A DNA stretch of 44,728 nt, filler included, from Jimgerdemannia flammicorona (taxonomy: Eukaryota), in the NCBI GenBank assembly GCA_003990765.1. It is 2 parts of 2 records of this genome, joined end to end, with 100 filler letters (N's around TTAATTAATTAA, not from the genome) between each part and the next. Parts side by side here need not be neighbours in the genome. Positions count along the whole stretch, not along the records: positions 1 to 22,315 come from RBNJ01001304.1; positions 22,416 to 44,728 come from RBNJ01001305.1. One strand, written 5' to 3'. The position numbers and the translations under genes are program-made. The notes under the pieces were generated by a model. The model saw only the letters and a program-made list of their open reading frames with translations, searched no databases and was not told the DNA's origin. Within the stretch, counting starts at the first letter, position 1, and each line of letters starts with the position of its first letter. Of this stretch, positions 8,759 through 43,222 are shown in pieces.

Positions 8759-10054
8759 TGTAATAAAACAATACACTGATAGGATTAATATGTTGTAGAT
8801 AATCAAGATTGATTATCAGCCCTAAGTTCTGAGTTCTTGTGAGGAAGCACTGAGTTCCAATTGCCTGTCATGGCAGTGTAACCCAAGTATTGCTTTTGGG
8901 TTCTTGTGCTGGTGAAAGTTCTGTACTTGTATCCCAAGTTGATCAGGCTTGGAATTGTTAATAAGTCAGATCTGAGGGTTCTGTGATAAGAATACTGCTT
9001 TATTCTTATATTCAGAGAAAGTGGAGCTGAGGTTACAATATACTTAGTATAGAAAGTAATTATATAGATTTGATGCTATAACTAAATATAGAGTGCTGGA
9101 TATGTCTATATGTATTTATATATACTATATTCAGTATCTATGACTACTAGTTAGAAATTTCTATTGAAAATTCTAGTAACTTGTAGATATATAATGATTC
9201 ATTATATCCTTCCTTTCTTTATCTAAACCTATTTATTAGATTTAGTACTAAACTCTAGATACTTATCAACTAAAGTGCAGTATACTGGACTACTTGAAAT
9301 ATAATATTGCTCTATTTTTTATTACTCAAATTAGCAATATTCTCAGAGGATACTCTATAGAGATAGTCAAGGACTTGAGGTTGGGTGCAGAAAAGAACAT
9401 AGAGTCTCTTGGTAATAATATGGATATGGTTGTCAATGAAAAGACAGACTTATTGCTTGATACTACTGAGAGTAGCTTATTGATAGATAAGATATCTAAT
9501 CTTATAGTACTCTTTTAGTTTTTATTGATAATAGAAGGCTAATTCTTTCAAGATATTGTTAGACTTTATTTGAGTCTGGGTCTCCAGAGATTTGTATATT
9601 GATAGAGAGTAGTTTGATAGAATTTTATTAGTATTCAATAGTTATAAATAATCTTGTTCTTAGTTTGTTTTTAGTATCTTTACTAGGTACTCATATTGTA
9701 GTGGGTTTTTTGTATAGAATTTGTTTATATTATTTATACTTATCTTTATTAGAGATATTTAGAGATATATATAACTGTCTTTTGAAAATTCTATTGAAAT
9801 TTTCATTATATCAGATGTCTGTATTGAATTACTACTTCTTTTATATTAGGTAAAGATTATCTTCTTTTTTTCCAGATAGTATTGAATGAGCTTAAGCTCA
9901 TCTAAATTAGTAATCCTTATAATTCAGAATATAATTAACTTTGTATTTTAGTTTTTAATTAATAATAAAAGATGTTTTTAATATATAGCTAGAGTTGATA
10001 TATGTGAAATACTGGATATATTTTTTCTAGAGTTGCTGGAAGATCTAACTTATA
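8759..10054 (-). mobile_element. Solo LTR, family C (1296 bp), decayed
   Basis: Termini TGTAA...TTATA (=TTACA with C->T). Flanks TACAG (8754-8758) and TACAA (10055-10059) form a near-perfect 5-bp TSD. The left ~730 bp is homologous to the reverse complement of 28152-28875. Confidence 0.8.
9190..9760 (-). pseudogene. Decayed LTR-C-encoded ORF (ends approximate)
   Basis: From 9512 the minus frame reads EYYKIRYLIYQ*ATLSSIKQ*VCLFIDNHIHIITKRLYVLFCTQPQVLDYLYRVSSENIANLSN, which aligns with the LTR A and LTR B ORFs. Confidence 0.7.
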
Positions 10055-10269
10055 TACAATAGGACTATACTTTACTAAGATCTTAAATAGTCGCACAAAG
10101 TTATGGCTAATGAGTTTATGCATGGCTTATTAGGTTCATAGTTAGCTTTGCTTTCTGACTTGGGAGGCCTGATCTTTATGATGCTGGCCGGATTAACCCA
10201 CCAGTTCAAACTATCTAAGAACTGGAAACTACTCTTGCTGGTAAAAAAAAAAAAAAAAAAAAAAAAAAG

Positions 10270-11170
10270 ATATTATATAGTCTAATATAATAGAGTTTAG
10301 GTTTCTTCTTCGGTCCTATATTATTTAGAGTCAGATATTATATACTGAGTAATACCTATTCACCTTTTTCATATATAACTTTTCTTCTATTTTTATCAGT
10401 ATATACTACTTATATTCTTTATACTTCTATAAGAGTATTATATACTTAATAGATGATATCTTATATATTATTAATGATTTCTTATACTACTGGCACTATT
10501 ACTCATATGTATAATAGTTGTGGGGGTTCAGGAGTATTATCTATGGTTCAGATAGAATGGAGTCATTTTTATACTTATACTTATACTATTATTATATATA
10601 AATTTAGTTAAGATCAGATTTTTGTCTCAATTATTCTACTTGTTATCTACTTCAGAGTTTAATTAATTCATTCTGTTTAGCTATCTATCTATGAGCAATA
10701 GACAATATATATATTAAGTTATACTCCTAATTCTTTGAAGAGTATCTGCTAGAAGTTGCTTGTAAACATTATATCTCTATCAGAGATAATTGCTGATAGT
10801 AACTTATAGAGATAAAATATATTATCAATAAATAATTATACTATTTCTGGAGCTGTTGTAGTAGTGGTTATTGTAATAAAATAAGTCTGCTTACTGAGAT
10901 AATTAATAAAGACAATAATTACATCTCTTCTTTTTTTTATTTTTAGCAGTTAGATAATGAAGTCCATTCTAATGTAGTTTTAATTTTGGATAGGAATTAG
11001 TAGTGACTATAGTGTTCTAGCTAAGACTTGATTGCTAGGCTTATATCTTTGGTAAATATTATAAGATATAATATAGTTCTTAATATTAGCTATTATCTTA
11101 GATCAGTAGAAATCTTGAGTAATATATTGATATATCTTGTCAAATCTCATATAATTAGCTATGGCTTCTA
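10270..11170 (-). pseudogene. Ty3/Gypsy integrase relic
   Basis: Stop-riddled minus-strand translation retains MDFII.L, IIVFINYLSKQTYFI, AIISDRDIMFTSNF*, *TE*IN*TL, PFYLNH and YTDKNRRKVIYEKGE*VLLS, i.e. the rve core and the downstream Gypsy region. Confidence 0.85.
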
Positions 11171-11179
11171 ATGAATAGA

Positions 11180-14100
11180 GTATCCATAGTGATGGCAGTT
11201 GAGACAAAGAGGAGAGTAGAGGAGATTATAAAGAAATTTAGCAATATAGTAGATATTGGATTTTGGGTCTGAGAGAGAATCTCATTTCAGACTGAAAATA
11301 TAAATATTCAGCTCTAGCTTACTAGAAGAGAGACTACTGAGAAGACTCAGAACTAGCCTTTAGTGCTGATGTAGAATACTTTTATCTATAAGATAATGAG
11401 GGTAAAAGATAGTGAGAAAGAGGAGAAAGATCTGCTAGAGATACTAAAGGAACTCAGTAGAGTAATAGAGTATCAGATAATAGTATGAAAGACTTATATA
11501 GTTTCAATATATCTGGAGATAATCAATAGAAAGTATATTCATATAGATAAGATATTATGGGAGAAGGTCTAAGGGAGAAAATAGCTGTAGGATCTATTGG
11601 CAGATTTGAAGAAGAAGATGATAGCTGGAACTAGAGAGGGCTCAGATAGAGTATAGGTGAGTGATTGGACTAGAGCTAGAGCAGAGAGGAAGAAGGAGGG
11701 TATAGAGAAGAATAAGAGACAAGATATCAGAGATTCTATAATGATGGTATACTTGAGGTCTGGAAGAAGAAGAAGGACTGTATAGTGAGGACTGATGCTT
11801 TGGTAGAGAAGACTGAAGAGAATGTAGAGATAAGAAATATTCATAGAGTTTATTTTGGGGTACTCAATATAGCAAAGAGAGAGTAGATAGTTGGGATCAA
11901 GGAGGATGAGCTATAGGATATTCAGAAGGAGGCATGAGATAAGTCTGTAAGTACTGGCACTGATATTATAATATCAAGAGAGAGGAGACTTGTAACTTCT
12001 AGGGGAAAGAATATCAGTGATCTGCACTGAATGAGTACAATGTTGAATGATTTGACTATAGAGAAGCTAGAGAAAGTAAACTTGAGAATTATCAGTAAGG
12101 AGTACTGAGCAAGAGTATTGCAGGATGATAGAGTGATAAAGAAGTTGAAGGCTGAGGTATTGGCTATATTTCTGGAGAAAAAAGGTTATGAGGTTGACAT
12201 AATAAGGAAAACTGAATTAGTAGTAACTACTGGGGAATATACTGTCTTCTAGTAGAAGTAGAGATATAGATTGCAACTTTGGTAGAAGATATGTGTAGAG
12301 TATAAAGAAGAGATAGAGGCTAAGGATGATAAGATAATAGCTGAGATGCTGGCTGAATTGAAGGCTAGGAAGGCTGAAAAGAAGGAGACTATTATAGAAT
12401 GTAATCTAAACTTGGCTTGTAAGAAGATGAGTATAGAACTGTAAGAAGATTAGAAATACTATATAAAATTATTTATTATGAACAATATAACTAACATTTT
12501 ATCACTAAATGTGAATAATCTGAGTAACTCTGTGAGGCATCAAAACATTTTTGCTTACCTGAGAAAATTGAAGATAGATCTTTTTCTATTATAGAATATA
12601 TACTATAAGAGAGACTTGAACAGACAGAAGTGGGCAAAGGAATGGGGCAGTGCAGCAGTTTAGAAGAATAAGATGAAAATTCTGATATAAAAAGATAGAA
12701 GAGATCTTTGTGAGATTAGAGGTTGAGAAGACTACTTAGTTTAAGAAGAGTGGCAGAGATCTGAGTGATAGCTGATAGTTATTAGCTCTTACTATTGCCC
12801 AGCAGTTAGGGGTGACTAAGTAGAGTAGATAGATAGACTCTATGAGTATAATATACTTGCTGAGACTGATATAGATATACTTAGTAGTGATTTTAACATA
12901 GTATAGAATGTACTATTGGATAGAACTAATAGTGAGAGAAGTACTGAGAATTATAGTAGTGGTCTGGATATCTAAGAGAAAGTAGAATATCTAAGTTCTT
13001 TAGTGGATACTGGTAGGGTGATATAGAGAGATAGGAGGGTTTATACTCATTGAGTGAATGGACTTGAGATGAGAATTAACTGGATGCTAACTACTGACTA
13101 CCTAAGGATAGATATCTGAGTAGATCTGGAGGTTAAGTAATACCCATAGTCAGATTATTGAGGACTATTGAGGTGAGAGAAGTGGAGATATGTAGGTCTG
13201 GATATAGTATCTTAATTCCTTCTTGCTGGCAGAGATAGAGTTGTGGGAGACTTGGGTAGAGGACATTAAATTGAAGATTGTTTGCTAGAATCATAAGAGA
13301 TCTCTTATAGAGTCTGCTGGATGAAGTTGAAGGAGACTGCTAGAGTATTTTGAGATGAGGCTAGTAGGTTCAAAGAGGTACAGTAAAGACAGAAAGTGAG
13401 GAGGGCTTCCTATTAGTTAGAGAGATTGTAGCTAAAATAGGCTGGTATATTAGGCCAGAAGATTATAGAGAATTGATAACTAGAATGAGCTCAGATAGAG
13501 GTAAAGGAGTTGAAGAGAGTATTGAGAGAGGAGGAGGAGAGATATAGCAGCTCAGCTATAGTAACAGAGACTTGAGGAAGACAAGAGGCCTACTAAGTAT
13601 CTGACTAGACTTCTTTAGATAAGAAGGGTGAGATAGTAGTAGGAGAGGGAGGGTACCCTAGTAAATGAGATATAATAGATCTTAAGTTCTTTGAAGGATT
13701 GATAGGGAGGTCTGTGGAGTGAGAAGGAAGAGAGTATAGATGAAGAGGCTATTGGGTACTCTCTGGAGGATTAGAACTCTCCACAGATTGATGATCTCAA
13801 GGACCTAATTCTGCTGGTCCAGAAGAATATAATTTTGAGTATCTTATTGGCTATAAAATTAGGCATAACTCCTGACAAGAATGGTCTAATCTGGGACTTT
13901 TGGAAGAAGATGATGAGAGTTTCAGAAGTATTGAGAGAGATGATAGTATTTTGTGACTTTATTCTTATAACTAGAGAGTAGGTTGGAGGACAGAACCTTG
14001 GTCTGATAGTACTACTATATAAAGACAAGAGCAGGAGAGAGATTTGAAAGAATTAGAGACTAATTATACTTTGGAATATAGACAGAAAGTTGGTCACTAA

Positions 14101-16070
14101 AGTGATTGTTGTAAGATTGCAGAAGGTGACTCAATAGATATTAAGAGATAAGTAATAGAGCTTTATTGAGGGCAGTCTGATTAGAGATAAGATGGCATAG
14201 ATATACAATATAATTTAAGAGATGAAGGCTAGTGAGCTAAATAGAAAGTTGGTCTTTCTGAATCAGAAGAAGGCCTATAATTGAGTTTAGTGAGTTTAGC
14301 TAGAAAAAGTATTAGAGAGGATTGGTGTCTCTCATTAGTTTTGGGTATTGATAATTAGTCTATTAAAGGACAGTAGAGTAGTAATTCTGTATAATGGTCA
14401 TTATAGTGCTATATTCTTATTAGAGAGGAGAGTATTTCAAGAAGATCCACTGTTCTCTATCTTATATACTTTATTATTAGAGCTATTGATAGATAGAATT
14501 TACTATGAGATATTAGAACTTCTAGTACTCAGAGTAGTCTGGAAGATTGGAGCTTTTGCAGATAACATAGTGGTTAGACTCAACTTGGTTACTGATATAG
14601 GTATATTGAGAGAGTAGTAGAATAGTACAAAGAGTACTCTGGGGCAAAGCTCAACTGATATAAATGTGAGATGATAGTACTGGAAGATAGTTTGATAGAT
14701 AGAGATATTATTGGGACTATTGTCTCTATAGGAAAGACAGTACAGTATCTGGGCATATTTCTATTAATGTATAGATCTGTCTTATCCAGAGCTTGGTGGG
14801 AGAGGAAGGTGGTAAAATGGAGAAATGTTCTTTAGAGTTGAGGGGAGTACCATATCTCTTTTACTGAGCAGATATCAATTCTGAATATCTACTGATTATC
14901 AAAGCTCTAGTATCTAGTATACTACTTGAACTTTCCAGCATAAGTGGTAAAGAGATTGCTGAAGATAGCTAAGAAATGAATTTGGGCTAAAAGGAGGAGC
15001 CAGATAAGTTGAAAGGTCCTGGTGACTGAAGAGAGCTATCAAGATATAGAGAGGAGGATAGATGTCTTTAATGTAGTGAGTCTGGGGGATAAGGTTTTCT
15101 CCTAGAGAATTCTCTGGTAATTTACTAGCTATGGTTAAACTATAGAATAGTTGATATTTATAGTACTGAAGATTCTAGTGGAGAGTGGTAGAGGGGGCTT
15201 ACTACATTGGTTTTCAGTAGTATGATAATAAAGGAGAAGTCTAATAGAGTTCTATATTATAGAGATGGGACAGACTTCTATTGAGCAGTTTACTGCTGGT
15301 GGACTTTAACATTAAGATAGATATAGAGTATCATTGAGGGGTAGGTCAGGATTTGTGGCCATTGGGCTGATAGATAGCAGATATTAGTGAGGCTTAAGAC
15401 TGAGTTAGAGTATGGTCTTGAAGTACTAAGATACAGCAGTAGCTTTCTCTGAAGTTCTGAGTAGTATAGTGATATATTTTGAGAAGGAATGATATATTGA
15501 ACTTTAGGTTAGGACACCTAGTGGTGAGAGGCAGTTTTGAGTATAAGGATTGTTTTAATATAGAGCAGAAAAAGAGATTATACAGATGCCTGAATATTGA
15601 CTGAGTGAGTATAAAGTATTTAGTAACTTCTGGAATTAAGTTAGGAGCTATCTATAAGTGAAGATAGTAAAGAGAGTATATGGAATGACTTAAGAGAGTA
15701 GTTGGTAGAGTGTATTGGTAATGAGTAGCTTACTATTGAGGAAATATTAGTAATATGGATAGAGTTGGCTGGCCATTGGTTTTATGTATTTGAGGATAGG
15801 AGATAGATAGTCTTAGAGGAAAAGATAGTGAGATAAGAGGAGCTAATAGTAGATATACTGTCCAGCTAGTAGAGGGGGTGGGGTCCTCAGGATAGTCACT
15901 ATCAGTATCTGATAAAAGTGATTTATAAGAAGAGTAATAGGTGAATTATAGTAGTTAATAATATGATTTGGGGTGGGTTGAGTTGAGGCTACTGATATGG
16001 TATAAGGACTATGTATTTGTTGTTATAGATTAGTTAATAAAGAAGTCTTGTGCAAAAAAAAAAAAAAAAA
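11180..16070 (+). mobile_element. L1/Tx1-like LINE, 5'-truncated, heavily decayed, poly(A) tail
   Basis: Colinear with 17300-22300. ORF2 start MNNITNILSLNVN at ~12478, WKIGAFADNIVV at ~14540-14575, AATAAA followed by an A-tract ending at 16070. 5' boundary approximate. Confidence 0.9.
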
Positions 16071-16613
16071 CTTAAAAACTATTCAGCCTGAGAAAACTGA
16101 AGTTATTAAAAAGACTAGTGAGTCAAAAGTATTAACTAGAGTACAGGTTAAGTATAGTAGACTTGCTTATAGTAGTAGGCTTTTTTTTAATAAAAGTGTG
16201 ATATTTTTAGCTAACAGTTCCTAAGAACTGTTAGTATTTATAATAGTATAGGATAGATTTTTAATTTCTAGTCTTTTTTCTCATATATACTATATAGTAA
16301 TATAATAATACTTATTTCAACCCCTCTCATATTCTTAGATAACTTAGGTAATAAGATATTACTTAGGAACTTGATATATATATATATATATATTAAAAAG
16401 TCTTTTAATTGTTCTTTTACTTTATTATATTTATTAAAATTGAGAAAGTATAGTTTCTTTATAATAAAATAAAGATGTTATTCTTCTTTAGTAATAATAG
16501 TTACAAGGAATATATTATTGCCATGTCTTCATGCCTTTCTCCACTACAATTCACATTATACACACTTTTACAACATACTTTCAACTTGTTTATTAGAGAA
16601 AGATATTAAGGCA

Positions 16614-18650: not shown

Positions 18651-18681
18651 AGGATGGAATCACGATATATCATTATTCCTT

Positions 18682-22198: not shown

Positions 22199-22315
22199 GG
22201 CCCTCAGGGGGGATAATGTCACAGTTTGGTAGCTAGAATCTGTGAGCAGAGTAGTGGGAGAGTGGGGATTGTGTTGGATAAAGTGGTCTTTCATCAGGAA
22301 GGGGTAGAGGGGGGG

Positions 22316-22415
22316 NNNNNNNNNNNNNNNNNNNNNNNNNNNNNNNNNNNNNNNNNNNNTTAATTAATTAANNNNNNNNNNNNNNNNNNNNNNNNNNNNN
22401 NNNNNNNNNNNNNNN
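22316..22415. other. Assembly gap / artificial contig linker
   Basis: 100 positions: N runs around TTAATTAATTAA (22360-22371), a six-frame stop linker. Confidence 0.95.
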
Positions 22416-24710
22416 CCAATGTCCAATGTCCCCAATGCCCCCATCCCTTTCTGAACAAGAATACACACTTTCCCCCTCCAAACTACTGTACCCCCCCATT
22501 CCTTAGTCCAATCCTATAAGTCCACATCTGCCTCATAATGAACAACCTGCAACAAAAAGTGATCTGCATCCAGGCCCTTAAGCCAACCAAATATATACTT
22601 CCTCCTAGCCACCCCCCATAGCCTATTAATGTTCAGTGAGAATATCCTAGTTGTACTGTTCATATTGAAGAAATGTTGCAACAAAGACCCCAATCTATAA
22701 TTCCATGCTCATCTCATCTCCTGCCAGATCTAAGCGCTGTTCAGCTTCCAAGTCACCCTCTGCAATATCCTGAGCATCCAGTGCCCCCAAGATTTCCTGA
22801 CATTTCACCCTATCCACTTCCTCCATATCTGCCTGGTAGTCCAAGCAGACTGCACGCCACTTCGCCAGTCCCTTTCTCAAGTTCCACAAGAAAAGTGCCC
22901 TGTCACTTGCAATCTTCCTAAGTTTCTCCTCCTGCTGACCATCAACCTGATATTCAATTGACTCCAGGAGGACAGCTAGGATCTCATTCCTTATCTTCCT
23001 TGGCACCTCCTCCCCCCATAGGATCTCCTCCCAGTGCCTCTCCTCTATCACCCAAAAGTCCTCACCACCTAGTTCTTCAGCCACTACCCCTTCCAGGGTC
23101 TTCCACATCCACTTCTCCTCATCCACTACCTCTGCCGCACCCTGAGCAATTCGTCCCCCATCTACCTCAGAGTCCACTAGCATGCTCCTCCTTACTGACT
23201 CATCCCACTCTTCATCTGGTACATCCATCAGCTCCTCCTCCCCCTCTGCTCCATCCGGAACACTATACTGAGGGCACACACCCTCACCCATTTTGGCATC
23301 TGCTTCCAAATTGCCCTCCCTCTCCTCCCCCACTCCAATCTGAGCCCCACTCTGAGCCATCTCTCCCCCCTCAGCCCAGGTGCTTTCCTGCAACCCTGCA
23401 ACTCCCTCCCCTGAGCTTCCACCAGCCCTACTCCCACTCAACTTCGCCAATAGCTCCTTCTGGATCTGCCTCCCCTGCATCTTCTCCCAGGCCCCCTTCT
23501 CCATCCGGACCCTCTTCCCATCTACCTCCCCCACTACTGTCCTGGCCTCAAACTCCTTCCAGGCTAATCTCCTCCTCACAACCACCCCTTTCAGATCCTC
23601 CAGAGCCTCCAACAGGTCCTCCTCCTCCTCTTGAGTCCCCTTCACCCTTGCGACCTTATACTCCACCGGTCCCCATCTCAACGTTGCTGGCCAGTCCCTC
23701 GACTTCCCCATATTCTCCTTCCCAGTCAGCCTCACCCTGACATCAACATCACTAGATCGAAGCTCCATTCCCTCTCAGACCTTGAACCCAACATTGACAA
23801 TCTTGCCATACTCCTGGATTGCCACCACAATCAACTCTCTGGTCCTCTCCTTCGATATGGTAGGGAGATCCAATACCATCAACTATACTACTCGCGGGTC
23901 CCAGTATATATACTGGGCCATAGGGACCATGACCCCACCAACCATCAACCCCTTCTCCATAGCTGCCAATAAGGTGTCTTCCTCCTCAAACCCCACCTCA
24001 ACCCCTTCCTTTCCCCTCAAAAACTTCACCAATGCTACTCCCTTAGCCTCCTGTGTCACTAGTCCCAAAATCATCCTTGCCATCACCACCAAGCCCCGGA
24101 AGTACATTGTGACCACGAATTCTGACCTCGACTTCTTGAGTAATGGGGCCGACACCATGCCTGTCACCCCATCTGCCAGGTCCCCAGGCCTCATGCCCAC
24201 ACCCAGTCCCAAATTGCCAACTGCCATTACATCTGGATTTTTTTGCCAGATCTCCAGTCACAGCCTCATCAACAGTCACATCTCCAGCCCCTACTCCTAC
24301 TCCTCCCCTGCTACCTGAGACTCCCCTGGGTGCACCTCCCTGTCCCCCAGCAGCAGCCATCAATGCCATCCCCAAGCCCAGCCAACCATCAAGGCCTGAG
24401 GCCATCTTGCTCATTCTGACCTTGTCAGCAAAGGTCAACCTCTCCCCTTCTCTCTGCCTCAGCCTGCCCCTCCCTCTACCACCAGGACCTCAGCTAGCCA
24501 TTGAGGCCCCCGGCATCCCCAAACCATCTCCCCTCCTCTCCACCTGCTGCCAGCCAAAGGCGCTGTCACCCCCCTGGCCAGTATGCTCACTAGTTCGATC
24601 ATTGCCATCCATATTGCTAGTCGCTAAATACCAAAAACATAGTAAAAAGTGTTGTCTGAGTCTTGTGTCACCCAAATGTTACCAGTGAAAGATCAACGAA
24701 CAGCGTGACC
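22416..24710 (-). mobile_element. 5' half of a young L1/Tx1-like LINE inserted into a Gypsy element; cut by the gap
   Basis: Closely colinear with ~38140-40425. ORF2 start MNSTTRIFSLNINRL at 22663. Confidence 0.92.
22695..24612 (-). pseudogene. LINE ORF1, best-preserved copy
   Basis: A 357-aa open stretch at 22695-23768 plus upstream pieces (23883-24227, 24043-24438). RRM-like VLDLPTISKERTRELIVVAIQEYGKIVNVGF. Confidence 0.8.
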
Positions 24711-26502
24711 TCTGTGTTTTCTTCATCTCCTTCCTCTATATCTGGTAAGACTCCTTTGTGGACATTGATAGAAACTCATACCTTTCTTCCTCTGTAGTTG
24801 ATCTGCATCTTCTGGGCATTGAGGTCAATGATGGCCTTGGCCTTGTGAAGCCATTGATTGCCAATGAGAATGTCATAGTTGGTGGTGCTTGTAATAATCA
24901 CATCTACTGGGATAGTAGCTCCTCCTATCTTGATGGGGACTTCTCAGATTTTGCCAAGATGGGTAGCTTGTGTACCATCTGCTGTAAATAGACCATCTTG
25001 GTGGACTCTTCAATGTCCCAACCTAGGCAGTCAATTGCCTTCTTGCTCATAAGGCATTCTCGAGCACCAGTATCAATGATGGCATCAAAGATACAGTCTT
25101 TGATCTGGCAGGGGGTATAGGCTGATATCTTGCACTGGTCTTCGGATTCTTCACCTGAGTTCTCAGATTCTTCTTGTGTATTGTGAGATTCTATAATCTT
25201 GTACTCTTGATTCTTGGCAGTAGTTGTAAGTCCTACTCTCAACTGCTGTCTAAAGGCAGGGACTTCAGCTAGCTGCCCAAAAGTAGCATTGACCTTCTGT
25301 TCCTTGAGGTCCTTGTAGATGTCATACTGGTGGATCTTGGTCTTGCACAGCTTCTGTTCCTTCTTGCTCTTGCTTTCTCCTGAGACTGGAGTAGTGCCTT
25401 CAATAATTTGGCAGACAGCTTCGTCTAACTCTATGTCTTGATCAATCTCCTTGGGTTAGGTCTTGCTTTGAATAGTGACAGCTGGAGTCTTCTTTGGTCT
25501 TCTAACTGGCTTGCTATTGCTCTTCTTGTCATAGGGCTTGGACTGGGTTCTGGTACCTTCAGTAGCAGGGTAGAATTTGAACTCCTCGTAGTATTCTTTG
25601 TCATCAGTATCACTGATCTCCTTGATGACTACTGCATTGGCTTGTTCTCTGGTTCTGCTAGCATTGCTTGGTTGGGCTTTGCATCTCATTTCGGTCATGC
25701 AACTCTTTGCATAGTGGCCTTCTTCTCAACATCTGAAGCATGTGATATTATGTTCTTCTGTAGCAGCTGCAAATCTCTGCACTGGTCTCCTGTTGGCACT
25801 TTGGACTTCTCTAACAACATCACTGAGATATGCAGTCATCTCAGCAAACTGCTTGACAAGTTCTTCCACTGGGTCAGCTTTGGCTGTCTTGGGGGTAGGT
25901 GGGGTTGGTTGTCTGTTTACAACTGTGGCAGGTAAGATACTAGTTGGCTTTGATAGCTCCATCTTGATGCCAGTTATTTTCTCTATTGAGTGTTCAGCAG
26001 AGTGTCTGGCAGTCTAATATCTCTGTACAAAGACCACTTTCTGATCAAGAGTCAGTGCAGCTGGGGTAGACTGGATTGCTAGGGCAATTTCAGGGTGAAC
26101 TCGTTTGAGGAAGATTGAATCTGCTATTTGTTCCTTGAGGCAGTCATCTGAGCCAGCTGAGACAATCTGGTGGCAGATTCGGGTATAGAATGAGTTGGGA
26201 TCTTCACTAAGTCCCTGGCAGATAGTATTGAGTTGATCCTTGAGAGCTTGCTTGATCTCTTTGGTATAATATGTTGTTCTGAGGATGACCTTCATGTTGG
26301 TAAGTTTGACTGCATCAGTACCAGCAATGGTGGCTGCATTAAACTTGTCTCTGGCAGGTCCTCTGAGACTGACTGGTAGAAGGGCCAATTGAGCATCTAC
26401 ACCTAGGGCTTGTATGGTGGCAAATTGTTCAAAGTCTTCAATGAAGGTCAGGATTGACTCTTCAGTAGTATATCCATAGAATGTGGGGGGATACATTTCC
26501 AT
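24711..26502 (-). pseudogene. Ty3/Gypsy gag-protease (truncated before RT)
   Basis: Gag MEMYPPTFYG...FIEDFEQFA...LRGPARD...ICQGLSEDPNSFYTRI; CCHC knuckle CFRC*EEGHYAKSC (~25700-25745); aspartic protease AIIDTGARECLMS (~25045-25085) with downstream YDILIGNQWL. Confidence 0.9.
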
Positions 26503-26602
26503 CTTATCTTGAATTCTTACAGGGATGACTCTTGTAGTCAGGGTAGTTGTTGTGGGGGTTATTCGTTTTTCAGCTTGAAAGTGAGGGATTCATCTTGAAT
26601 CA

Positions 26603-26619
26603 CCAGCCAATAGGTACCA
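26603..26619 (-). promoter_or_regulatory. Putative primer-binding site TGGTACCTATTGGCTGG
   Basis: Begins with TGG 3 nt after the LTR end and lies before gag. It is absent after the other LTR A copy. The cognate tRNA is not assigned. Confidence 0.65.
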
Positions 26620-26622
26620 AGT

Positions 26623-28151
26623 TGTCATGTAGTGGTCGCTGAGTCCTTCAAATATGCCAGATTCTCTTCAAGGTGTATCTCTTAGACTAACTCAAGTTGT
26701 TATAAGCAAGTTCTTATTGGAGTGCCTTCCTAAGGTCTTATAGTCCTCAAACTTCTTATCTTTTAACTGTCTTGTTATCTCTTAGATTGCTTGCAAGAAA
26801 GTGTGTATAAGTGAAACTGGAACTGACTTTATTTTAGAGGAAATAAGAGGGGTATTTATACAAAATATAATTCAATGGTTGCTAAGATATAAAGCTAAAT
26901 ATAAATTTCAATAACTAAAACTACTAAGTTCCAGGGCTAGCATTATTTAGCATCACATCAAAATGCTGGTGCTGGAATAATTTCACATCACCTCAGAATA
27001 CTGGTGCTGGCATTATCCAGTATTATATGAGAATACTAGTGCTGGCATTATCCAGTGTAATACAGAACTCAAAGCAGAAAGTTAAGGACTATGGGAGCTT
27101 CATCCTCATCATCATCATCACTGAAGGAGATGAGATCCACAAATTTGTCATGCAGGTCATGTGTTTTGTGTCCGTCGCATGCTTTGGGTATGTCATGTGG
27201 GATGATGTCATCACCAATAACGTCATCACATTTGGCTGTGGTAGGAAAATCAGGAACAAGATCTGGAGCTCTCTAGTCTATGAGGTTCTCTTCCACAAAG
27301 TAGGAAACAAATGTGGGGTCTTGGGGAGGTCTAACCTGGATGCTTGGACCTTGGAATACTGAGATCAATCCTTGCAGGAATTAGTCTGGGTTGTCCTGAA
27401 GGATAGGGTACCAGAAGTCTTCTACTTCTTCACTGTTGAGGGTGATAGTAGACCAAGCTTCTGTAGCCACTCTGGCTTCTAGTACATTGATATGGCAGGA
27501 TGATAGATCTCTGAAGTCTGAGACTCTAACATACTCCAAGTTGGGGATCGACCATGGTACATGCCTGAAGATCTGATGGATCTTCTTAGCTGTCCTTGTT
27601 TCGCGTATATATATCCATGAGAGTGGCATCTTGTAGCTCTTGGGTACTGGCTTGTAGGAACTCTCAGTAGAGGAGGTTTCCTATTTCATACTCCTGCCAC
27701 ATTTGGAGGTATTTGGTAGCAATAGTGATCCTTGTTTCCATTTCACAGCAGTAGAGAATGAAGTGATAAGGGTCTGCAGTATCCAGGTTAACACTAGGAG
27801 TCCTTCTTGAGCAGGTCCTCATGACTCTTCTGATGTCTTGGAACATCCTTTCCTTGACCGAGATACCTTGGTGATTCCTTGATCTTGAGGTTTGGTGGGC
27901 AGCAGGCATTTCATTTGTAGTAAGTCTTTGAGCTATTTTGGGATTGGTGGTTCTTGTTAGTTGCTACTACTGTAATTCCTTGATCCTTCTTTTATATTCT
28001 TCAGGATGCTTGTGCTGTGGTCACAATGACTCACAGTTGGTCATCATTGCTCATCTCATATGCTGTATGATCTTCTTGTGTTCCGATCTGGTGGCTTGTA
28101 AGGAAAGACTGTCTCCAGTGCTGATGTCATCATTCTGAAGTCACTATTATA
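26623..28151 (-). mobile_element. 5' LTR (family A, ~1529 bp) of the Gypsy element
   Basis: Starts TATAATAGTG (TG->TA decayed) exactly where LTR C homology is interrupted and ends CACTACATGACA, followed by PBS and gag. No polypurine tract or internal boundary seen between the ORF and the LTR end. Confidence 0.82.
27069..27909 (-). pseudogene. LTR-A-encoded ORF (~280 aa), unknown function
   Basis: Runs from ATG 27909 to TGA 27069. Lesions: TGA 27664-27666, a frameshift in the TA run near 27606-27614, TAA 27381-27383 and TAG 27273-27275 (TGG in the copy at 1-288). Confidence 0.8.
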
Positions 28152-28875
28152 CTATCAATAAGCAACTCTTAGCAAAGCTAAGCAACTGTTCAATCTATTT
28201 ATTAACAACTATATTTATATCATTGCAAAAAGGTTATATATTCTTTTTTGTACTCAACCTTAAGTTCTTAATCACCTCTATAGAGTATCTCCTGAGAATA
28301 TTATTAATTTGACTAATAAATACTAGAGTATCACTACTTTTCAAGAAGTTCAATATACAGCCCTCTAGTTTGATGAGTATCTAGAATTCAGTATTAACTT
28401 TAATGAGTAGATTCTGATAAAAAAGAAAAAGATATAATTGTTTATTATATATTAATAAGCCACTGAAATTTCTAATAGAAATTTTAATAAGTAGTTATAA
28501 GTACTATATAATATAACTATATATATATAAATATATCCAATATACTGTATTTAGTCATAACTTGGAATCTGTATAAATACCCTCTATAGTGAGTGAGTTA
28601 TAACCTCAGCTCTACTTTTTTCAATATAAGAATAAGGTAATATTCTTATCAAAGAACTCTCAGATCTGATATATTAATAATTCAAAGCCTGATCAACTTA
28701 GAATATAAATATAGTGCCTTTATTAGTATAAAAACCTAAAAGCAATACTTGGACTATACTACTGCAACAAATAATTGGAACTTAGTGCTTTCTTACAAGA
28801 ACTCAGAACTTAGGGCTAATAGTTATCTTGATTATCTACAATGTATTAATTCTATTAGTATATAGTTTTATTATA
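28152..28875 (+). mobile_element. 3' part of a family C LTR, interrupted by the Gypsy/LTR A insertion
   Basis: Reverse-complement match to 8759-9487. The frame from 28153 reads YQ*ATLSKAKQLFNLFINNYIYIIAKRLYILFCTQP*VLNHLYRVSPENIINLTN. TATAAATACC at 28572; ends TTATTATA. Confidence 0.85.
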
Positions 28876-30026: not shown

Positions 30027-30052
30027 ATATATATATATATATATATATATAT
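30027..30052. repeat. (TA)n microsatellite at the 3' end of the old LINE
   Basis: Direct reading. Confidence 0.9.
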
Positions 30053-30749
30053 TTTATAGTCACTTAGACTTCTTTATTACCCTAACATAAATCTATATAT
30101 AATATATAAAGCTACAAGTTTCACTAGCCACCAATAAAGGCATTTCTAAGAAGACACCAATTGTTTTCCTAGAAGAGTATTAACTAATACTGACTTTCTA
30201 CTATACTCTACTATCACTCAATACTAAATGCCCTCAGCTCTCTAAAACAATATTCTATATCTTCTTCACTGTCTCAACCTCCAGCTGCTTCCTCTGATAC
30301 TACTACCCTTATACTATCTCTCAAAAAAGCCATCTCTATCTCTCTATCAATTCTCTAATTCTCATCTATAGAATATCCTCAAAAACCTACTACTAGTATG
30401 AGGTCATCAAGATCTATACTCCTAAAATCTGACCAAGACTACCCCAAACATCACCAACCTCTCCCACCAGATGTCTCTATATTACTACACTGATAGAATC
30501 TCTGGAATAAGCTGCTAAGATATACTCTGATATCTGAACTATCTCTCTATAGAGCTCAGCATATCACTTATAATCCCAACAGCCATCTATCTCCATTCAG
30601 TCCATCTGATAGCACAGTATTACATTCCTCCTCAAAAATCTCCACTATACTACCCAGTATTGAGAGGGTACTACATATCTAATGCAAAGCAGCTATCCAA
30701 TATCAGACCCATCTCTATTTATATATCTTACTAATTCCAGCCATCTGCC

Positions 30750-31347
30750 TAGTGCTCCTAATAAGTCAATTTAATCTAGATTAGATTCAGATTGATTTGA
30801 ATCAACTATTGTTTTGATTTTCAAATTAGACAATTAAATATTTACATCAATAACTCAATGAATAATTATATAATTTTGATGATCTTGGTGTCATTTGAAG
30901 CCCTTAATAAGGCCTATCTAATGATACTAAGAATATTGAAATCAGATCATATATTGCTGAGTTATAAAGGAAAACATCTGAATTACTAATTTTGGAAATT
31001 ATTTGATTTGTTGATTTTGGAAATTTCATCAAATAGATCATTTTTCTTAATATCTTAGCAATGTATAATCCTATTTTAATATTCTTGGTATTATTAGAAA
31101 GGCCTTATTAAGGGCTTTCATATAATACCAAGATCATCAAATATGGATGATTATTTATCGAGTTATTGATATAAATATTTAATTGTCTAATTTGAAAATC
31201 AAAACAATAGTTGATTCGAATCCATCTGGATGGGATTCAAATCCCATTCAAGTTGATCCAGATGGGATTTGAATCCCATCCAAGTTGATCCAGATGAGAT
31301 TCAAATTCCATCTGAATTCTATTCAGATTGACTCATTTAGAGCACTA
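30750..31347. mobile_element. Non-autonomous hAT-type MITE (598 bp), largely palindromic
   Basis: Termini TAGTGCTC...GAGCACTA; 8-bp TSD CATCTGCC (30742-30749) / TATCTGCC (31348-31355); long inverted arms ~30790-30990 vs ~31030-31230. Confidence 0.88.
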
Positions 31348-34300: not shown

Positions 34301-34879
34301 CTATCTCTCAGACTACTAATATTGAGTAATAAAATATATAAACTGTTTATCATCAAGAGACAAGTATTTATAAAACTACTGCTACTGTCACTATCTTCTC
34401 AGCCCTGCTCTTGATGATGTTCTGATGTTCTTTACAGTCTACACTCTAGATGCACTCTCAATTCTCACTACTACAAAAAAGGTCCACCTGCTCTGATACT
34501 ACCTTTTGAATATCTATTATTCTGCTATTATCAATCTTATATCTCTCATTCTCTAAGAGGGCAGCTACCATTGCTATTATCAGTTTTGACCTCTGTATCA
34601 CCATATTGAGAAACTCTTCTCAAGCCTCCTGAGATCAATAAAACACATCTACTTTTTTTTTTTTTTTTTTTTATAGTCACTTGGACTGCCCTTTATTACT
34701 GAAGTCTATAGTTCTAACAATACAATGTCACCCCCACCCTCAACCAATGCCCCATAGACCCCACCCTCCCCTCTCGACCTCCCCCTGCCTGAGCACTACC
34801 CAATTACCCACTACTCAAATCCTCCCACCACTCTTATGGGAGATACACTGCACTAAACCCCTGCAGTACCCCCCACCCA

Positions 34880-37800: not shown

Positions 37801-38390
37801 CCCAGCCCTGCCACCCAGTGGGTGTATGCCCACCATTTGGCCCAAAAATGTCTTCCCGAGTCCACTAAAGCACACAATCTCTCTGTCTCTATCCAGTCCC
37901 CCAACCCACCACTTTCGCTCCGCATGCCTCTCCCTCCATCTGTTCTATCCATCTCCTTATCCCATATCATATTGAAGTCACCCCCCATACAGTCCAGCCC
38001 AACTTCCCCCAATACACCAGCCTCTTTCAATCCGTGAATCCAATCCACCCTCTCCCCTCTCTCAGCTGGGCAGTAACAAGACCCAACTGTCAACAAGCCC
38101 CAACCAGGCCTCCTCCACCTACCCCATACCACCCAAGACCCCCAATGTCCAACGTCCTCAATGTCCCCCATCCCTTTTCGAATGAGAATACACACTTTCC
38201 CCCTCTATACTGCTGCACCCCCCCATTCCTTAGTCCAATCCTGTAAGTCCACATCTGCCTCATAACGAACATCCTGTAACAAGAAGAGGTCCACATCCAG
38301 TCCCTTAAGCTATCCAAAAATATACTTCCTCCTAGCTGCCCCCTGTAGCCCATTAACATTCAACGAGAATATCTTAGTTGTACTGTTCAT
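34880..38390 (-). pseudogene. LINE ORF2 (APE + RT + CCHC); 3' end approximate
   Basis: LFLLQDVR, MGGDFN, SRIDWVL, WSDHW, APGEDGLP, VPQGDPLLPILY, AFADD, CEDC..EHWLSEC. Confidence 0.9.
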
Positions 38391-38421
38391 ATTGAAAAAA
38401 TGTTGCAATAGAGACCCCAGC

Positions 38422-40349
38422 CTAGAATTCTATGCTCATCTCATCCCCAGTCAGATCCAAGCACTGTTCAGCTTCCAAGTCACCCTCCACATTAGCCTGA
38501 GCATCCAGTGCCTCCAAGATTTCCTGGCATTCCACCCCATCCACTATCTCTATATCCAACCAGTAGTCCAAGCAGACTGCATGCCACTTCTCCAGTCCTT
38601 TTCTTGCATTCCACAAGAAAGTTGCCCTATCACTCGCAATCTTCCTAAGTTCCTCCTCCCACTGATCATCAACTTAATATTTAACCAACTCCAGGAGGAC
38701 AGCTAGGATCTCATTCCTCATCTTCCTTGGCACCTCCTCTCCCTGAAGGATCTCCTCCCAGTACCTCTCTTCCATCACTCTGAAGTCCTCACCCCCCAGT
38801 TCTTCTACCACAACCCCTTCCAGGGTCTTCCACATCCACTTCTCCTCATCTACAGCCTCCACTACACTCTGAGCAATTTGTCCCCCATTTACCTCAGGTT
38901 CCACCAGCATGCTCCTCCTCACTAACTCATCCCATTTCTCATCTGGCACATCCAGCAGCTCCTCCTCTCCCTCAGCTCCACCCGGGACACTATACTGAGG
39001 GTACACACCCTCACCCATTTTGGCATCTGCCTCCAAATCACCTTCCCTTTCCACCCCCACTCCAATCTGCATCTCACCCTGGGCCATTTCTCCCCCCTCA
39101 GCCCAGGTGCTCTCCTACAACCCTGCAACTCCCTCTCCTGAGCTACCACCAGCCCCACCCCCACCCAACTTCGCCAGCAGCTCCTTCTGGATTCTCCTCC
39201 CCTGCAACTTCTCCCAGGCCCCCTTCTCCATCTAGACCCTCTTCCCATCCACCTTCCCCACCACCATCCTGGCATCAAACTCCTTCCAGGCCAATCTCCT
39301 CCTTGCAACCATCCCTTCCAGATCCTCCAGTGCCTCCAATAGGTCCTCCTCCTCCTCCTGGGTCCCCTTCACCCTTGTGACCTTACACTCCACCTGTCCC
39401 CACCTCAGTGCCACTGGCCAGTCCCTTGACTTCCTCATATTCTCCTTCTCAGCCAGCCTCACTCTGATATTGACATCACCAGTCCTAAGCTCCATGCTCT
39501 CCCAGACCTTGAACCCAACATCTACAATCTCTCCATACTCCTTGATCACCTCCACAACCAACTCCCTGGTCCTCTCCTTTGACACAGTAGGGAGATCCAA
39601 TACTGTCAACTATACCACTCAGGGGTCCCAGCACATGCACCAGGCCATAGGGACCACAACCCTGCCAACCATCACCCCCTTCTCCATGGCTGTCAACAAG
39701 GCATCTTTCTCCTCAAATCCCACCTTGACCCCTTCCTTTCCCCTCAAAAACTTCACTGATGCAGCTCCCTTAGCCTCCTGTGCCACCAGCCCCAAAATCA
39801 TCCTTGCTGTTACTGCCAAGCCCTGGAAGCACATCATGACCACGAATTCTGACCTCGACTTCTTGAGTAATGGGGCCGACACTATGCCTGTCACTCTATC
39901 TGCCAGGTCCCTGGACCTCATGCCCACTCCTAGTCCTGAATTGTCAACTGCCGTCACATCTGGATTTTTGGCCAGATCTCCAGTCACAGTCTCATCAATA
40001 GTCACATCTCTAGCCCCTACTCCTGCTCCTCCCCTGCCACCTGAGACTCCCCTGGATATACCTCCCTGTCCTCCAGCAGCAGCCATCGATGCCTTCCCCA
40101 GCCCAGCCAACCATCTAGGCCCAAGGCCATCTTCTCCATTTGGACCTTGTCAGTGAAGGTCGACCTCTCCCCACCTCTCTGCCTCAGCCTGCCCCTCCCT
40201 CTACCACCAGGACCTTAGCTAGCCATCAAGGCCCCCAGCATCTCCAAACCATCTCCACTCCTCCCTACCTACTGCCAGCCAAAGGTGCCAGCACCCCCCT
40301 AGCCAGTATGCTCACCAGTTTGATCATTGCCATCTATGTTGATAGTCAT
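38422..40349 (-). pseudogene. LINE ORF1
   Basis: ORF-track pieces 39619-40110, 39232-39609, 38674-39087 and 38422-38616 are closely similar to the 22695-24612 copy. Confidence 0.8.
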
Positions 40350-41154
40350 TGAACACTGAAAACATAGTGAAAAGTATTGTCTAAGTCTTGTATCACCCAA
40401 ATGTTACCAGTGAAAAATGATCGAACACATCCACTTCCTTGATATACTTCTCTACAAACTCCTCAAGTATTGCCTAGAACTAGCTATCAGCTATAATTGC
40501 CATTGGTAGGCCTAGAGGTTCTGCTCAACTCCTGTAGCAATTCTCTATTTATAGAAACATCAGAGGTGACCTCTACTAATTCATTCTCCTTAGAGACCTT
40601 TTTCAGCTATACCACCTTGCTAGCCTCAGGATATTCCCAGTAAATATTCACAGCCCTAACTATATGAGCATCCTCTACTGATGTCTCAGAGACCATCTCA
40701 ATGACCTCCTCAAAACCCCCCTCTCTTACCTCCTCCTTATCAGTCTACTTTCTCTTCACTAATATATATAAAGAGTCACCTATACCCCCTAGCTGCAAGA
40801 AGGACACCTCAGCTACCTCTACTCCTTTCATTCTATTCTAGTCAATTTCAGCCCTTATGGCCTCCTCCTCAGCAGACCCCTACAACACAGCCTGCAAATG
40901 CTCCTAATTCTCCTTAAGCCACTATCTCCTCTTCCTATCTGCCTAAATCCAGACCCAGTCTATCATGAACTCTTTCTACTTTCTTTTTTGCAAAGCCTTC
41001 ACCTTCTCTCTCTCCTCTAGAGTAATTAGCAACTCTTCTTCTTTCTGTTTGAATACTTTCCTCCTCCTGATTCAGTACTTCTGCTCTTTAACTTAAATAA
41101 TCTCTAGTCAGTCCTATTCTACCCTATCACCTCCTTCTTTTCTAACTATACCAT

Positions 41155-43222
41155 TATAAGGGGGTTACTTTTTGGGGTAACTATTATGTAGTTCTAGAAA
41201 GGTTTTCTGGATATTCTGGGTATTCTGGAAGACCATTTTCTTATGGTCAAGATCAATTTCGTATAGAGTACATCCTCTACACTTATTGATTTCAAGATCA
41301 GGTTGATGTCTTAACCAAAGTCCTTTTTTGGACTAGTTCTGGATGTTCAGGATTTTCCGTATTTCAGGAAGTTCAAGAAACTAAGACCAGCTTAGTTGAA
41401 TTGGTGTATCGCTGCAGACAATACTCAATTAGGAAATTTCGTGATGGAGTTAGGAGTAGGACCTAACAGGAAGCAGATTTACTTAAGAGTGGTTTGTGGG
41501 TTATGGAATAGGTTTATTTGCTATTCATGATATTGCTATACTAGGAGTATTTGTATGAAGGGGTATTGTGGGGAAGTATTCAGGAATGTTCTTGTGTGTT
41601 TGAGTCTGAGATTCTGAGGTCTGGGGGAGGGGGTATTTATACTAGTGAGGGGCTATCTGGACTATGCTAGATATGGATGTAGCACTAAGTGCTTTTCTGA
41701 GTCAGAATGCAGTCACATAGTACAAGTGTGATCTGACATGTCAAGAGATCGTCTGACTGCTGAGTCAGTTCACAGTCACATTGTACAATGCTAATCGAAC
41801 TATACTATGACTGCTAGGCTATTTATGGGATTAGGCACTGTCTGGATAGTCTTCGATGACATCACCATCAATTGCATCATCTCTGATGAAGTAGTCATCT
41901 AGGAAGAGTGGTTCGCAGATTACTTCTCCTTGTTCACTGAGGTAATACATAGTACATTGGAACTTTGTCTCCGTCCCACAGGATAGCATCATCTGTCTCG
42001 TATGCTGGGTAAGGTGTTGGTGGGTAAAGGATGGGTGTATTGTCTTCACTTTCGTCAGATTCACTGTCTGCATACCTTCTATAGGTTATGGCACTATGAG
42101 TTGCAGGATTGTAGTAAGCTGGTGGCTGTGGTTCATATCGCTCATACTCAGGTAGTGGAGTGGTTGATTCAATCTCGAGGGTTGTCTGGAGGTACAGGTT
42201 GTATTCTCCGGTTTCTTCATTGTAGTTAAAGTAAACAGGAGTGAATACGGGTTGGTATTTGTGCCAGTGGTCATTGTCCCAGTAAGCCTCATATATAGTT
42301 ATGAACTGTTGTAAGTTCATTGGCAAGGTTGGCGGAGTGATCAGGGTTGGCAGAGATCCTTGGCTAGAGGTCATGTCAGCATCAGAGGGATCATTATCTT
42401 CTGCTTCATCTTCAACAAAGTGGATTATATCATAGATGTCCTTCATGGCATATCCAACTTGAGGCATTTGCAGGATGTGATCATTGGGGTATGGGAAGGT
42501 TCTGTCTGTGGTCTCGATGTACTTGAGGTACTTGTGGTTGAGTTCTTGTATTATGTCATCGATTTGGCCATAGGACAGAGTAGTAACCATTTCAGCTGTG
42601 GTAACTCGGAGGCGGGGAATAAAGGTACTATACTCATAGAAGAGTTCTCAATGTTTGCGGGTGATGAGCTTCTGGTGTTGAGACATCTGGGTAATGTCTG
42701 TATCATGGTGGTGTTCGACCATGTCTTCCAGGAGGTGGCCAATCTGGTAGTAGCTTGAGATTTGTCTGATTCGGTAGGCCTTGCTAAGCATGTTCAGAGC
42801 ATTCCATCAGGCTTCCACGAAGTAGAGTGGTACCAGGCTATGGATATTCATGAGGGGCAGAGGGGGTGTGGCTCAGTTGACCATGGCATTCCAAATGTCA
42901 GCATGGATACAGTTGTAGATCTCTGTGGTCATGTTTGTGTATTTGGAAGTTGTGGTTGTTTGTTTGTTTTTGGTTTTCTGATTTGATGTGTCTCAGTACT
43001 CGGTATATATGCATTTAGTCCTGATTGGTAAGATTCTGTTTGTGTAAATCTTGTGTTCCGTGACTTCGTATTGACTCAGCTTTGTGCACTGTGACTTTGG
43101 TTTGACTCAGCTTTGTGATCAAGCAGGTGATTTCCAGATCTGTTTGGAGGTCGCATGTGATTTCAGTGGCTTGTTCAGAGGGTGATATATAATTTCAGTG
43201 GCCTGGAGGTTGTGCACTTACA
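41155..43222 (-). mobile_element. Solo LTR, family B (2068 bp)
   Basis: Termini TATAAG (=TGTAAG) ... CTTACA; perfect 5-bp TSD ACCAT at 41150-41154 and 43223-43227. No gag or pol inside. TATAAATACC on the minus strand at 41632-41641. Confidence 0.9.
41831..42932 (-). pseudogene. LTR-B-encoded ORF (~364 aa when repaired), unknown function
   Basis: ATG at 42932. One frame with three TGA codons (42873, 42807, 42648; consistent with CGA->TGA) joins the 218-aa ORF 41934-42590. A 7-bp near-duplication ATGTACT/ATGTATT (41957-41944) shifts to the frame ending at 41831. Confidence 0.85.

Follow-up and report, generated by a model that had tools for sequence, protein, structure and literature searches.

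The window analysed here, a 44,728-nt stretch of the Jimgerdemannia flammicorona genome joined from parts of two assembly records, contains decayed copies of three divergent LTR retrotransposon families, designated A, B and C. The family A LTR (26623-28142, minus strand; ~1.5 kb) is bounded by 5′-TG...CA-3′. Its 5′ end, the TG at 28142, adjoins a truncated family C copy (C2) at 28143-28147, and its 3′ end, the CA at ~26623, is the point where a second copy of the LTR stops matching. This second, partial copy (A2; 1-767, plus strand) covers the repeat from the acidic tail of an ORF to the LTR end with 83% identity to 27356-26630; it runs off the window start, and its match to A stops abruptly at the other end. 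With TG...CA bounds and more than one copy in the window, the family A sequence has the marks of a terminal repeat. The A LTR carries an accessory ORF (27070-27910, minus strand; intact relatives P0006-P0011), decayed by a frameshift near 27605 and by in-frame stops. An N-terminal domain shared with family B occupies 27474-27861 (minus strand; matches to a joint A+B HMM at 27861-27607 and 27611-27474, and hhalign against B). Between the ORF stop and a TATA box, a 26-nt direct repeat in two copies (26995-27055, minus strand) can be read from the sequence and may be enhancer-like. The TATA box itself, GTATAAATACCC at 26850-26861 (minus strand), is the putative core promoter of the A LTR.

Past the LTR end, a TGG follows 4 nt on, which is PBS-like by position, and then gag. 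Profile matches to zf-CCHC and gag-asp_proteas define a gag and aspartic protease region at 24988-26502 (minus strand), with a CCHC knuckle at 25746-25696 (E 5e-4; at 20.5 bits, below the cut-off of 20.8) and the protease at 25113-24988 (E 0.014). A LINE at 24702 interrupts the element, as do assembly gaps at 22316-22415; no 3′ LTR is seen, and its reverse transcriptase (RT) and integrase are absent from the window. The RTs within the window are those of APE-carrying LINEs, and both LTRs of one element were nowhere seen within the window. Element A is taken as an LTR retrotransposon of the gag-protease type, probably Ty3/gypsy-like.

The family B accessory ORF (41831-42932, minus strand; relatives P0004 and P0003) is broken by a frameshift near 41940 and by three stops, each a CGA-to-TGA change. 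Its stop codon is the TAA at 41833-41831, to which the P0003 alignment extends, and the shared N-terminal domain lies at 42546-42932 (minus strand; A+B HMM, hhalign against A). The ends of the B LTR were not found within the window because a LINE sits ~600 nt past the ORF. Family C is represented by two copies. C1 is a decayed remnant of the shared domain with both of its conserved blocks (9300-9524, minus strand; HMM positions 55-130). A stretch at 8761-9490 (minus strand), terminating in ..ACA at ~8761, is common to C1 and C2 at 76% identity. C2 (28147-28873, plus strand) retains block 2 and lacks block 1, its 5′ part having been removed by the insertion of A. Since C1 continues upstream past the point equivalent to the C2 cut, block 1 included, and C2 is cut at the TG of A, position 28142 is an insertion boundary.

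The seven peptides on which the preliminary description was built were all located on the expected strands, exactly or within a few bases of where it had placed them. Family A block 1 (27696-27667) and block 2 (27593-27501) lie on the minus strand in two frames because of the frameshift near 27605. Blocks 1 and 2 of family B (42755-42726 and 42665-42573) and of C1 (9512-9483 and 9416-9324) are also on the minus strand, and block 2 of C2 (28222-28314) is on the plus strand. The motif GTATAAATACCC recurs as an exact 12-mer in B (41631-41642, minus strand, ~190 nt past the ORF stop) and in C2 (28571-28582, plus strand), and with 1 mismatch in A2 (533-544, plus strand); 0.31 matches are expected, and four were reached in none of 100 shuffles. 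The motif is on the same strand as the peptides and always downstream of them, about 190-260 nt from the gene end (190-210 nt from the ORF stop in A and B) and 240-300 nt from the LTR end. Because the ORF lies upstream of the shared TATA motif, the gene is placed in U3, with a putative transcription start and poly(A) site taken from motifs. The evidence tips in favour of each family carrying a sense-orientation gene inside its LTR, upstream of the LTR promoter, the embedding in the LTR being well supported for family A only; for B and C, the placement follows from the same architecture as in A.

Metagenome protein sets yielded intact relatives of both ORFs. The A ORF has six and the B ORF two, with open frames 58-85% identical to the window copies; these are protein sequences from gene callers, which report open frames only, and they form a biased sample in this respect. 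The A relatives (P0006-P0011) are 138-271 residues long at 58-80% identity. Indels in their tails preserve the frame, the same stop is kept at ~60% identity, and five of the six end in LN[FI]LL. For B, P0004 covers the N-terminal part at 85% identity and reads arginine at all three in-frame TGA stops of the window copy, and P0003 covers the C-terminal part at 65% identity. The window copies were inactivated via C-to-T and G-to-A transitions. Intact frames in the relatives, frame-keeping tail indels and the restored B stops bear out the earlier proposal of a real, conserved accessory protein. A cluster look-up returned no name other than ‘hypothetical protein’. Two further candidates were set aside: P0005, a repeat protein, matched B residues 112-148 weakly and with repeat inflation (E 1e-4), and a metagenome locus found by scanning with the A profile (L001; 30% identity over 78 residues) was judged spurious because its contig is phage-like and has neither repeats nor retroelement genes. 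Among sequencing runs, parts of B occurred only in soil metagenomes and in one organism, and the word share was at most 0.26.

The predicted product has ~270 residues in A and ~370 in B, with a shared N-terminal domain of ~130 residues. The tail that follows is fast-evolving, disordered and strongly acidic. In A it contains 30-32% D+E and has a net charge of -14 to -15 over 57-60 residues; in B the net charge is -27 to -36, with -19 over the last 100 residues. The strongly acidic tails noted at the outset are thus confirmed by composition, and an acidic region of the kind expected of a Tas-like trans-activator is present, by composition only. Of the small helical domain proposed alongside them, helices are predicted in the N-terminal part at low confidence only. 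AlphaFold2, run twice with the merged A+B alignment as input, reached pLDDT values of 34.9 and 48.5, which are unusable for assigning a fold, and the agreement of helix positions between the two models is not independent support, as the same alignment was used. Pfam searches with the window copies and four intact relatives returned nothing at E <= 10, a profile search of PDB sequences reached a best E of 0.18 with unrelated enzymes, and the ESM Atlas gave nothing usable, its models having pLDDT 0.35-0.39. No membership in a known accessory-protein family was found in Pfam or among PDB sequences. The domain therefore deserves the term unrecognised that it had been given: Pfam, PDB sequences and the Atlas provide no name, and in A gag and protease lie separately downstream. 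Our data indicate a conserved, genuinely coding accessory protein gene of no recognised family, its product consisting of a predicted helical N-terminal domain and an acidic tail.

The preliminary description had also claimed that one homologous domain is shared by all three families, to be judged against shuffled controls. Block 2 alone scored at chance level in pairwise Smith-Waterman comparisons with shuffles (z -0.03 to 2.6). Longer segments gave z 0.42 for A-B (score attained by 322 of 1000 shuffles), 0.04 for A-C1 (469 of 1000) and 2.27 for B-C1 (41 of 1000), which overall is chance, and phmmer with a single intact B relative as query retrieved no match to A or to C with E <= 10. The pairwise tests were dropped as a basis for homology. 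Profile comparison of the A and B families with hhalign gave P 0.0038 for whole proteins and P 0.0013 for the N-terminal domain, where the score of 25.4 compares with a mean of 11.9 and maximum of 23.1 for column shuffles and was reached by none of 300. The profiles, shallow at Neff ~1.3, are collinear over ~119 columns with an hhalign probability of only 9-18%, and MAFFT independently found the same A-B register. When the A+B HMM was run on the six-frame translated window, C1 was the best non-self match (11.5 bits, E 0.0058; next 2.1 bits). A reversed database peaked at 3.6 bits, and none of 40 locally shuffled databases reached 11.5. C2 was outside the top 40 matches, hhalign of C against A and against B was noise (66 and 83 of 110 shuffles attained the score), and among 44 candidates in a protein search for family C none had E <= 1. 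The claim is supported at the profile level for A and B and, by HMM, for C1, and is not supported by pairwise alignments, by hhalign of C or for C2. The age given to the protein, ‘ancient’, would follow solely from the divergence between families.

Placement in U3 suggests how such a gene could be maintained and expressed. Reverse transcription would copy it to both element ends, and it would stay in solo LTRs. Expression could use the 3′ U3 portion of the element RNA or a small promoter of the gene itself, which may correspond to the TATA-like motifs at ~27997 in A and ~43008 in B, 75-90 nt upstream of the ATG. The protein may be a trans-acting regulator whose N-terminal domain would bind and whose acidic tail would activate transcription of its own LTR; composition and position suggest this function, which we hold weakly. 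An unlikely, more far-reaching version takes each LTR as a self-contained gene in which a small promoter of its own at the U3 5′ edge and the ORF for a trans-acting protein precede the enhancer repeats, the TATA box and the poly(A) signal of the LTR, so that solo LTRs across the genome could go on providing a factor by which the family is activated or protected against silencing. Just as doubtful is the extension of this idea to a ‘complex retrotransposon’ that would parallel complex retroviruses with a domain not seen elsewhere.

With some possibility, though a low one, the same gene at the same location acts otherwise, as an RNA-binding or export factor (Rev- or Rem-like), as a protein that suppresses silencing by the host, or in targeting or as a chaperone. 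Arginine is abundant at the A N-terminus (RRAMRTRTRR in P0008), but this stretch is not shared by B. The hydrophobic conserved A C-terminus, LN[FI]LL, also speaks for another mode of action. The C-to-T and G-to-A transitions that disabled the window copies imply that the host attacks these elements; however, none of these roles has a family or fold match behind it.

A different reading of the promoters would put the ORF within a very long R, transcribed from the TATA-like motif near the LTR 5′ end, and make it the first cistron before gag, as is the extra ORF1 in Ogre elements of plants. The TATA-like motifs before the ATG in A and B fit this, as does a sense-oriented ORF 5′ of gag. It is nonetheless improbable, as R would be ~1.1 kb, to our knowledge far above any known R length, and conservation across A, B and C falls on the downstream TATA box rather than on the motifs before the ATG. 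Less probable still is that the ORF lies outside the LTR, as a 3′ internal gene that follows pol and precedes a short 3′ LTR of ~450 nt, with the A layout representing two tandem elements that share one LTR. The order of parts in A2 at 1-767 (tail of the ORF, LTR, flank) is just as compatible with this, and the window is without a complete element; against this, the TG of A starts exactly at the C2 cut-off, 28142 is only 232 nt before the ORF ATG, and pol was not found upstream. That the families resemble one another through chance or composition, with no shared domain and with frames open since the copies are young, is very improbable despite the chance-level pairwise tests, the noise in hhalign of C and the shallow profiles, given the A-B score that no shuffle attained, the isolation of C1 in the HMM search, the same position relative to the TATA motif in A, B and C, and a frame and stop kept in relatives at ~60% identity.

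A gene inside the LTR, the reading preferred here, is an unusual location for a retrotransposon gene. Retrotransposon LTRs are regarded as non-coding control regions and masked by annotation pipelines, and a conserved U3 protein gene common to families with non-alignable LTRs would routinely escape annotation. In the open-access full texts searched, we found no description of a retrotransposon LTR that contains a protein gene. Duplication with each LTR and persistence in solo LTRs would alter the view of the dosage and persistence of element factors. Should the protein act on its own LTR as a regulator, or oppose silencing by the host, retrotransposons would have an equivalent of the accessory genes of retroviruses, and the gene would offer a handle on how such elements evade genome defence.

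The position proposed here resembles that of sag, which encodes the superantigen of mouse mammary tumour virus (MMTV) within the U3 of its LTR: a whole sense ORF lies inside a U3 of >1 kb and is hence duplicated in both LTRs. However, sag is a gene of a mammalian retrovirus and encodes a membrane glycoprotein, whereas the elements here are gag-protease retrotransposons and the protein is acidic and predicted to be helical or disordered; Pfam, with nothing at E <= 10, showed no sequence relation to sag. Foamy virus Tas/Bel1 and the other 3′ accessory trans-activators of complex retroviruses are likewise element-encoded and acidic in their C-terminal part, with genes situated in or next to the 3′ U3 portion of the genome. 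The analogy to Tas, drawn in the preliminary description, fits position and composition, but the Tas gene only overlaps U3, whereas here the entire gene is placed inside the LTR, and no sequence or fold match between Tas/Bel1 and this protein was found.

Extra ORFs of LTR retrotransposons, such as ORF1 of Ogre and those in the Tat elements of plants, are located in the internal region. Bdelloid rotifer elements reportedly carry captured ORFs there too. For Botrytis Boty/BcGypsy1, brtn is described as an internal-region accessory gene in antisense orientation (PMC8365987, which cites Zhao et al. 2011). All of these resemble the present gene as accessory genes of function not known beside gag and pol, but they are internal, and brtn is antisense, whereas the gene here is sense and inside the LTR. 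The crapaud LTRs of Podospora have a U3 that diverges into subfamilies before the TATA box, a conserved TATA box and 3′ half, and a non-coding length of 339-443 bp (PMC10787394). The pre-TATA U3 is similarly divergent here, with the TATA motif alone common to the families, but the LTR is ~1.5 kb and its U3, as placed here, is protein-coding. The earlier statement that the LTR nucleotide sequences show no alignment was nearly right, the exception being GTATAAATACCC as the sole stand-out common word. Shared 10-mers for A-B, A-C2, A-C1 and B-C1 were inside the block-shuffled null range, and the TATA motif was the only word common to all three families. B and C2 share 17 10-mers against a null mean of 1.9 and maximum of 9, in runs on different diagonals.

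A conserved coding frame common to families of decayed LTR retrotransposons lies upstream of a shared TATA box in the LTR of family A. On the minus strand, this LTR starts with TG at 28142, exactly where C2 (plus strand, 28147-28873), one of two copies of family C, loses its 5′ part. Because the other copy, C1, extends upstream of the point equivalent to the cut and carries the first of two conserved peptide blocks (block 1) there, 28142 is an insertion boundary. The open reading frame (27910-27070) is followed on the same strand by two 26-nt direct repeats (27055-26995), the 12-nt TATA motif GTATAAATACCC (26861-26850) and, about 17 nt after it, AATAAA. The repeat unit ends with CA at about 26623, where the match to a second copy (A2, window 1-767; 83% identity, rising to 97% towards the end) abruptly breaks off. 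TGG stands 4 nt past the LTR end. The gag region, with its CCHC knuckle (E 5e-4), starts near 26502, and downstream of it an aspartic protease (E 0.014) is encoded before the element is cut at 24702 by a 5′-truncated LINE. From this layout of TG...CA ends, second copy, TGG, gag and protease, the frame of family A therefore lies inside a 1.5-kb LTR. Embedding of the gene in an LTR is observed in family A only; in family B the frame is followed after about 600 nt by a LINE, and LTR ends of B were not found in the window.

Intact relatives were obtained for both frames. With the window copy of B as query (P0001, stops read as X), a search of the full protein library gave three matches. P0004 (128 aa, 85% identity) covers the N-terminal part and has arginine at all three positions where the window copy has TGA, and P0003 (247 aa, 65-66% identity) covers the C-terminal part and continues past the frameshift of the window copy to the TAA at 41833-41831. 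The third match, P0005 (436 aa), is weak (E 1e-4 against B residues 112-148, TLSYGQIDDIIQELNHKY); in this protein a unit containing LSFDKIADFIEKLNNGY is repeated six times in tandem. The repetition may have inflated a chance match, or the two proteins may make distant use of one short helix motif. The A query (P0002) gave six relatives (P0006-P0011; 58-80% identity). The start of P0008 (271 aa) corresponds to the ATG at 27910, the C-terminus LN[FI]LL is found in five of the six, and gaps in their acidic tails preserve the frame. All relatives of A and B come from short metagenome contigs and are annotated no further than 'hypothetical protein'. Judged from their sequences these are real coding frames, with the caveat that gene callers list open frames only. 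Family B is partly represented in soil metagenomes and in one coded organism. A metagenome scan with the A profile returned a sole locus, on a 13-kb phage-like contig whose large ORFs resemble those of structural proteins; the match (30% over 78 residues) looks spurious and we do not count the locus as a homologue. Wherever an intact relative allows comparison with the window copies of A (27070-27910) and B (41831-42932, both minus), all in-frame stops are transitions: arginine to TGA three times in B, glutamine to TAA and tryptophan to TAG in A. The C copies have a GC content of only 25-30%. The decay looks like a C-to-T/G-to-A pattern, as by cytosine deamination or a RIP-like process.

No Pfam family was matched at E <= 10 by the window copies or by four intact relatives; searches of PDB sequences gave nothing below E 0.18, and the Atlas gave nothing. 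Low-confidence AlphaFold2 models (pLDDT 34.9 and 48.5) contain helices only. The strongly acidic tails of the preliminary description were confirmed: in A they consist of 30-32% D+E with a net charge of -14 to -15 across 57-60 residues, and B has a net charge of -36 across 247 residues. The N-domain is near neutral, and an arginine-rich N-terminus is present in A and absent from B. The protein might, through its acidic tail, be a trans-activator of its own LTR, which we offer as a rather doubtful guess; by composition, its nearest analogue is foamy virus Tas, without sequence relation to it. A role in RNA export or anti-silencing would be a rival reading. By position, the nearest analogue is MMTV sag, likewise without sequence relation. 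The extra ORFs known from LTR retrotransposons (Ogre ORF1, Tat additional ORFs, rotifer ORFs, Boty brtn) lie in the internal region or are antisense, and the open-access full-text literature searched yielded no description of a protein gene within a retrotransposon LTR. The feature is real and unusual.

Exact copies of the motif GTATAAATACCC are present in A, B (41642-41631) and C2 (28571-28582), and the copy in A2 (533-544) differs at one position. In every case the motif lies on the strand of the peptides and downstream of them; its distance from the ORF, or from what remains of the ORF, is 190-260 nt, and the LTR ends 240-300 nt further on. By chance 0.31 matches are expected, and four were reached in none of 100 shuffles. 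No other word was common to all three families in an LTR 10-mer comparison, and of the pairwise counts B-C2 alone exceeded the block-shuffled null. This is the expected place of an LTR core promoter. For crapaud (PMC10787394), LTRs that diverge ahead of the TATA box but are conserved from there on have been described, and our families follow the same pattern. Because of this likeness and the downstream position of GTATAAATACCC, we infer that the gene is in U3. A location in R is a less likely rival reading. A gene at the 3′ end of the internal region, in tandem arrangement, is another less likely rival, against which the insertion boundary at 28142 speaks. Because of its probable U3 location, the gene would be copied into both LTRs and kept in solo LTRs. 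Its expression might start from the 3′ end of the element RNA, or a small promoter might belong to the gene itself; TATA-like motifs occur 75-90 nt upstream of the ATG in A and B. A second 12-mer, CGGAACACAAGA, is exact in A (28074-28085, minus) and B (43049-43060, minus), where it precedes the start of the ORF by 115-165 nt on the same strand. It was chosen post hoc, and the shuffle count (two matches in one of 100 shuffles) therefore gives no more than a hint of a shared cis element.

The preliminary description assigned one domain to all three families, and its seven quoted peptides are present where it placed them. Unprofiled pairs of these peptides do not resemble each other more than shuffled sequences do: z ranges from -0.03 to 2.6 for block 2 by itself and, for segments of about 135-160 residues, is 0.42 (A-B), 0.04 (A-C1) and 2.27 (B-C1), and a phmmer search of the six-frame window with an intact B relative missed both A and C at E <= 10. 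With profiles, hhalign aligned the whole A and B proteins collinearly over 116 columns (P 0.0038, probability 8.8%) and the N-domains over 119 columns (score 25.4, P 0.0013), a score reached by none of 300 column-shuffled B profiles (mean 11.9, sd 2.5, maximum 23.1). MAFFT on the mixed A/B set gave the same register and added matches before block 1 that are absent from the preliminary description (DI..AM, P..N, P..F). Against either A or B in hhalign, the profile of C, built from two decayed AT-rich copies, stayed at noise level, its top-scoring alignment being the block 2 register described before. An HMM of the A and B N-domains, with C left out, was searched against the six-frame window, and C1 (9524-9300, minus) ranked first after A and B (11.5 bits, E 0.0058), matching positions 55-130 with both blocks; the runner-up had 2.1 bits, a reversed database peaked at 3.6 bits and forty locally shuffled databases at 8.7. 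C2, which lacks block 1, is absent from the top 40 matches, and no protein relatives of C were found in the database. We conclude that families A and B share a homologous domain, to which C probably adds a third, decayed member. Taken literally for pairs, the shuffled-control criterion of the preliminary description would refute the homology claim; for profiles the claim holds, with moderate statistics. Chance resemblance, which the pairwise scores would allow, is argued against by the shuffled-profile and HMM controls.

The window consists of dead retroelements nested in one another, with assembly gaps at 22316-22359 and 22372-22415. LINE-like elements with APE endonuclease and RT are located at about 11.2-22.1 kb (plus), 24702-22416 (minus) and about 41.2 to 32 kb (minus); several such non-LTR copies carry Exo_endo_phos and RVT_1, and those at 22416-24702 and 38142-40427 share 86% identity. 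In the sense strand of these LINE-like copies G is extremely abundant and C scarce, and GC skew reaches about 0.5 across kilobases. A near-perfect palindrome (30785-31231; inverted arms of about 115-450 nt, 81-88% identity) lies within an AT-rich decayed stretch. Inside a higher-GC stretch (2000-8700), a weak methyltransferase-domain match at about 3750-3890 (minus; Methyltransf_11/25, E about 2e-5) may represent a host gene beside the repeat nest.
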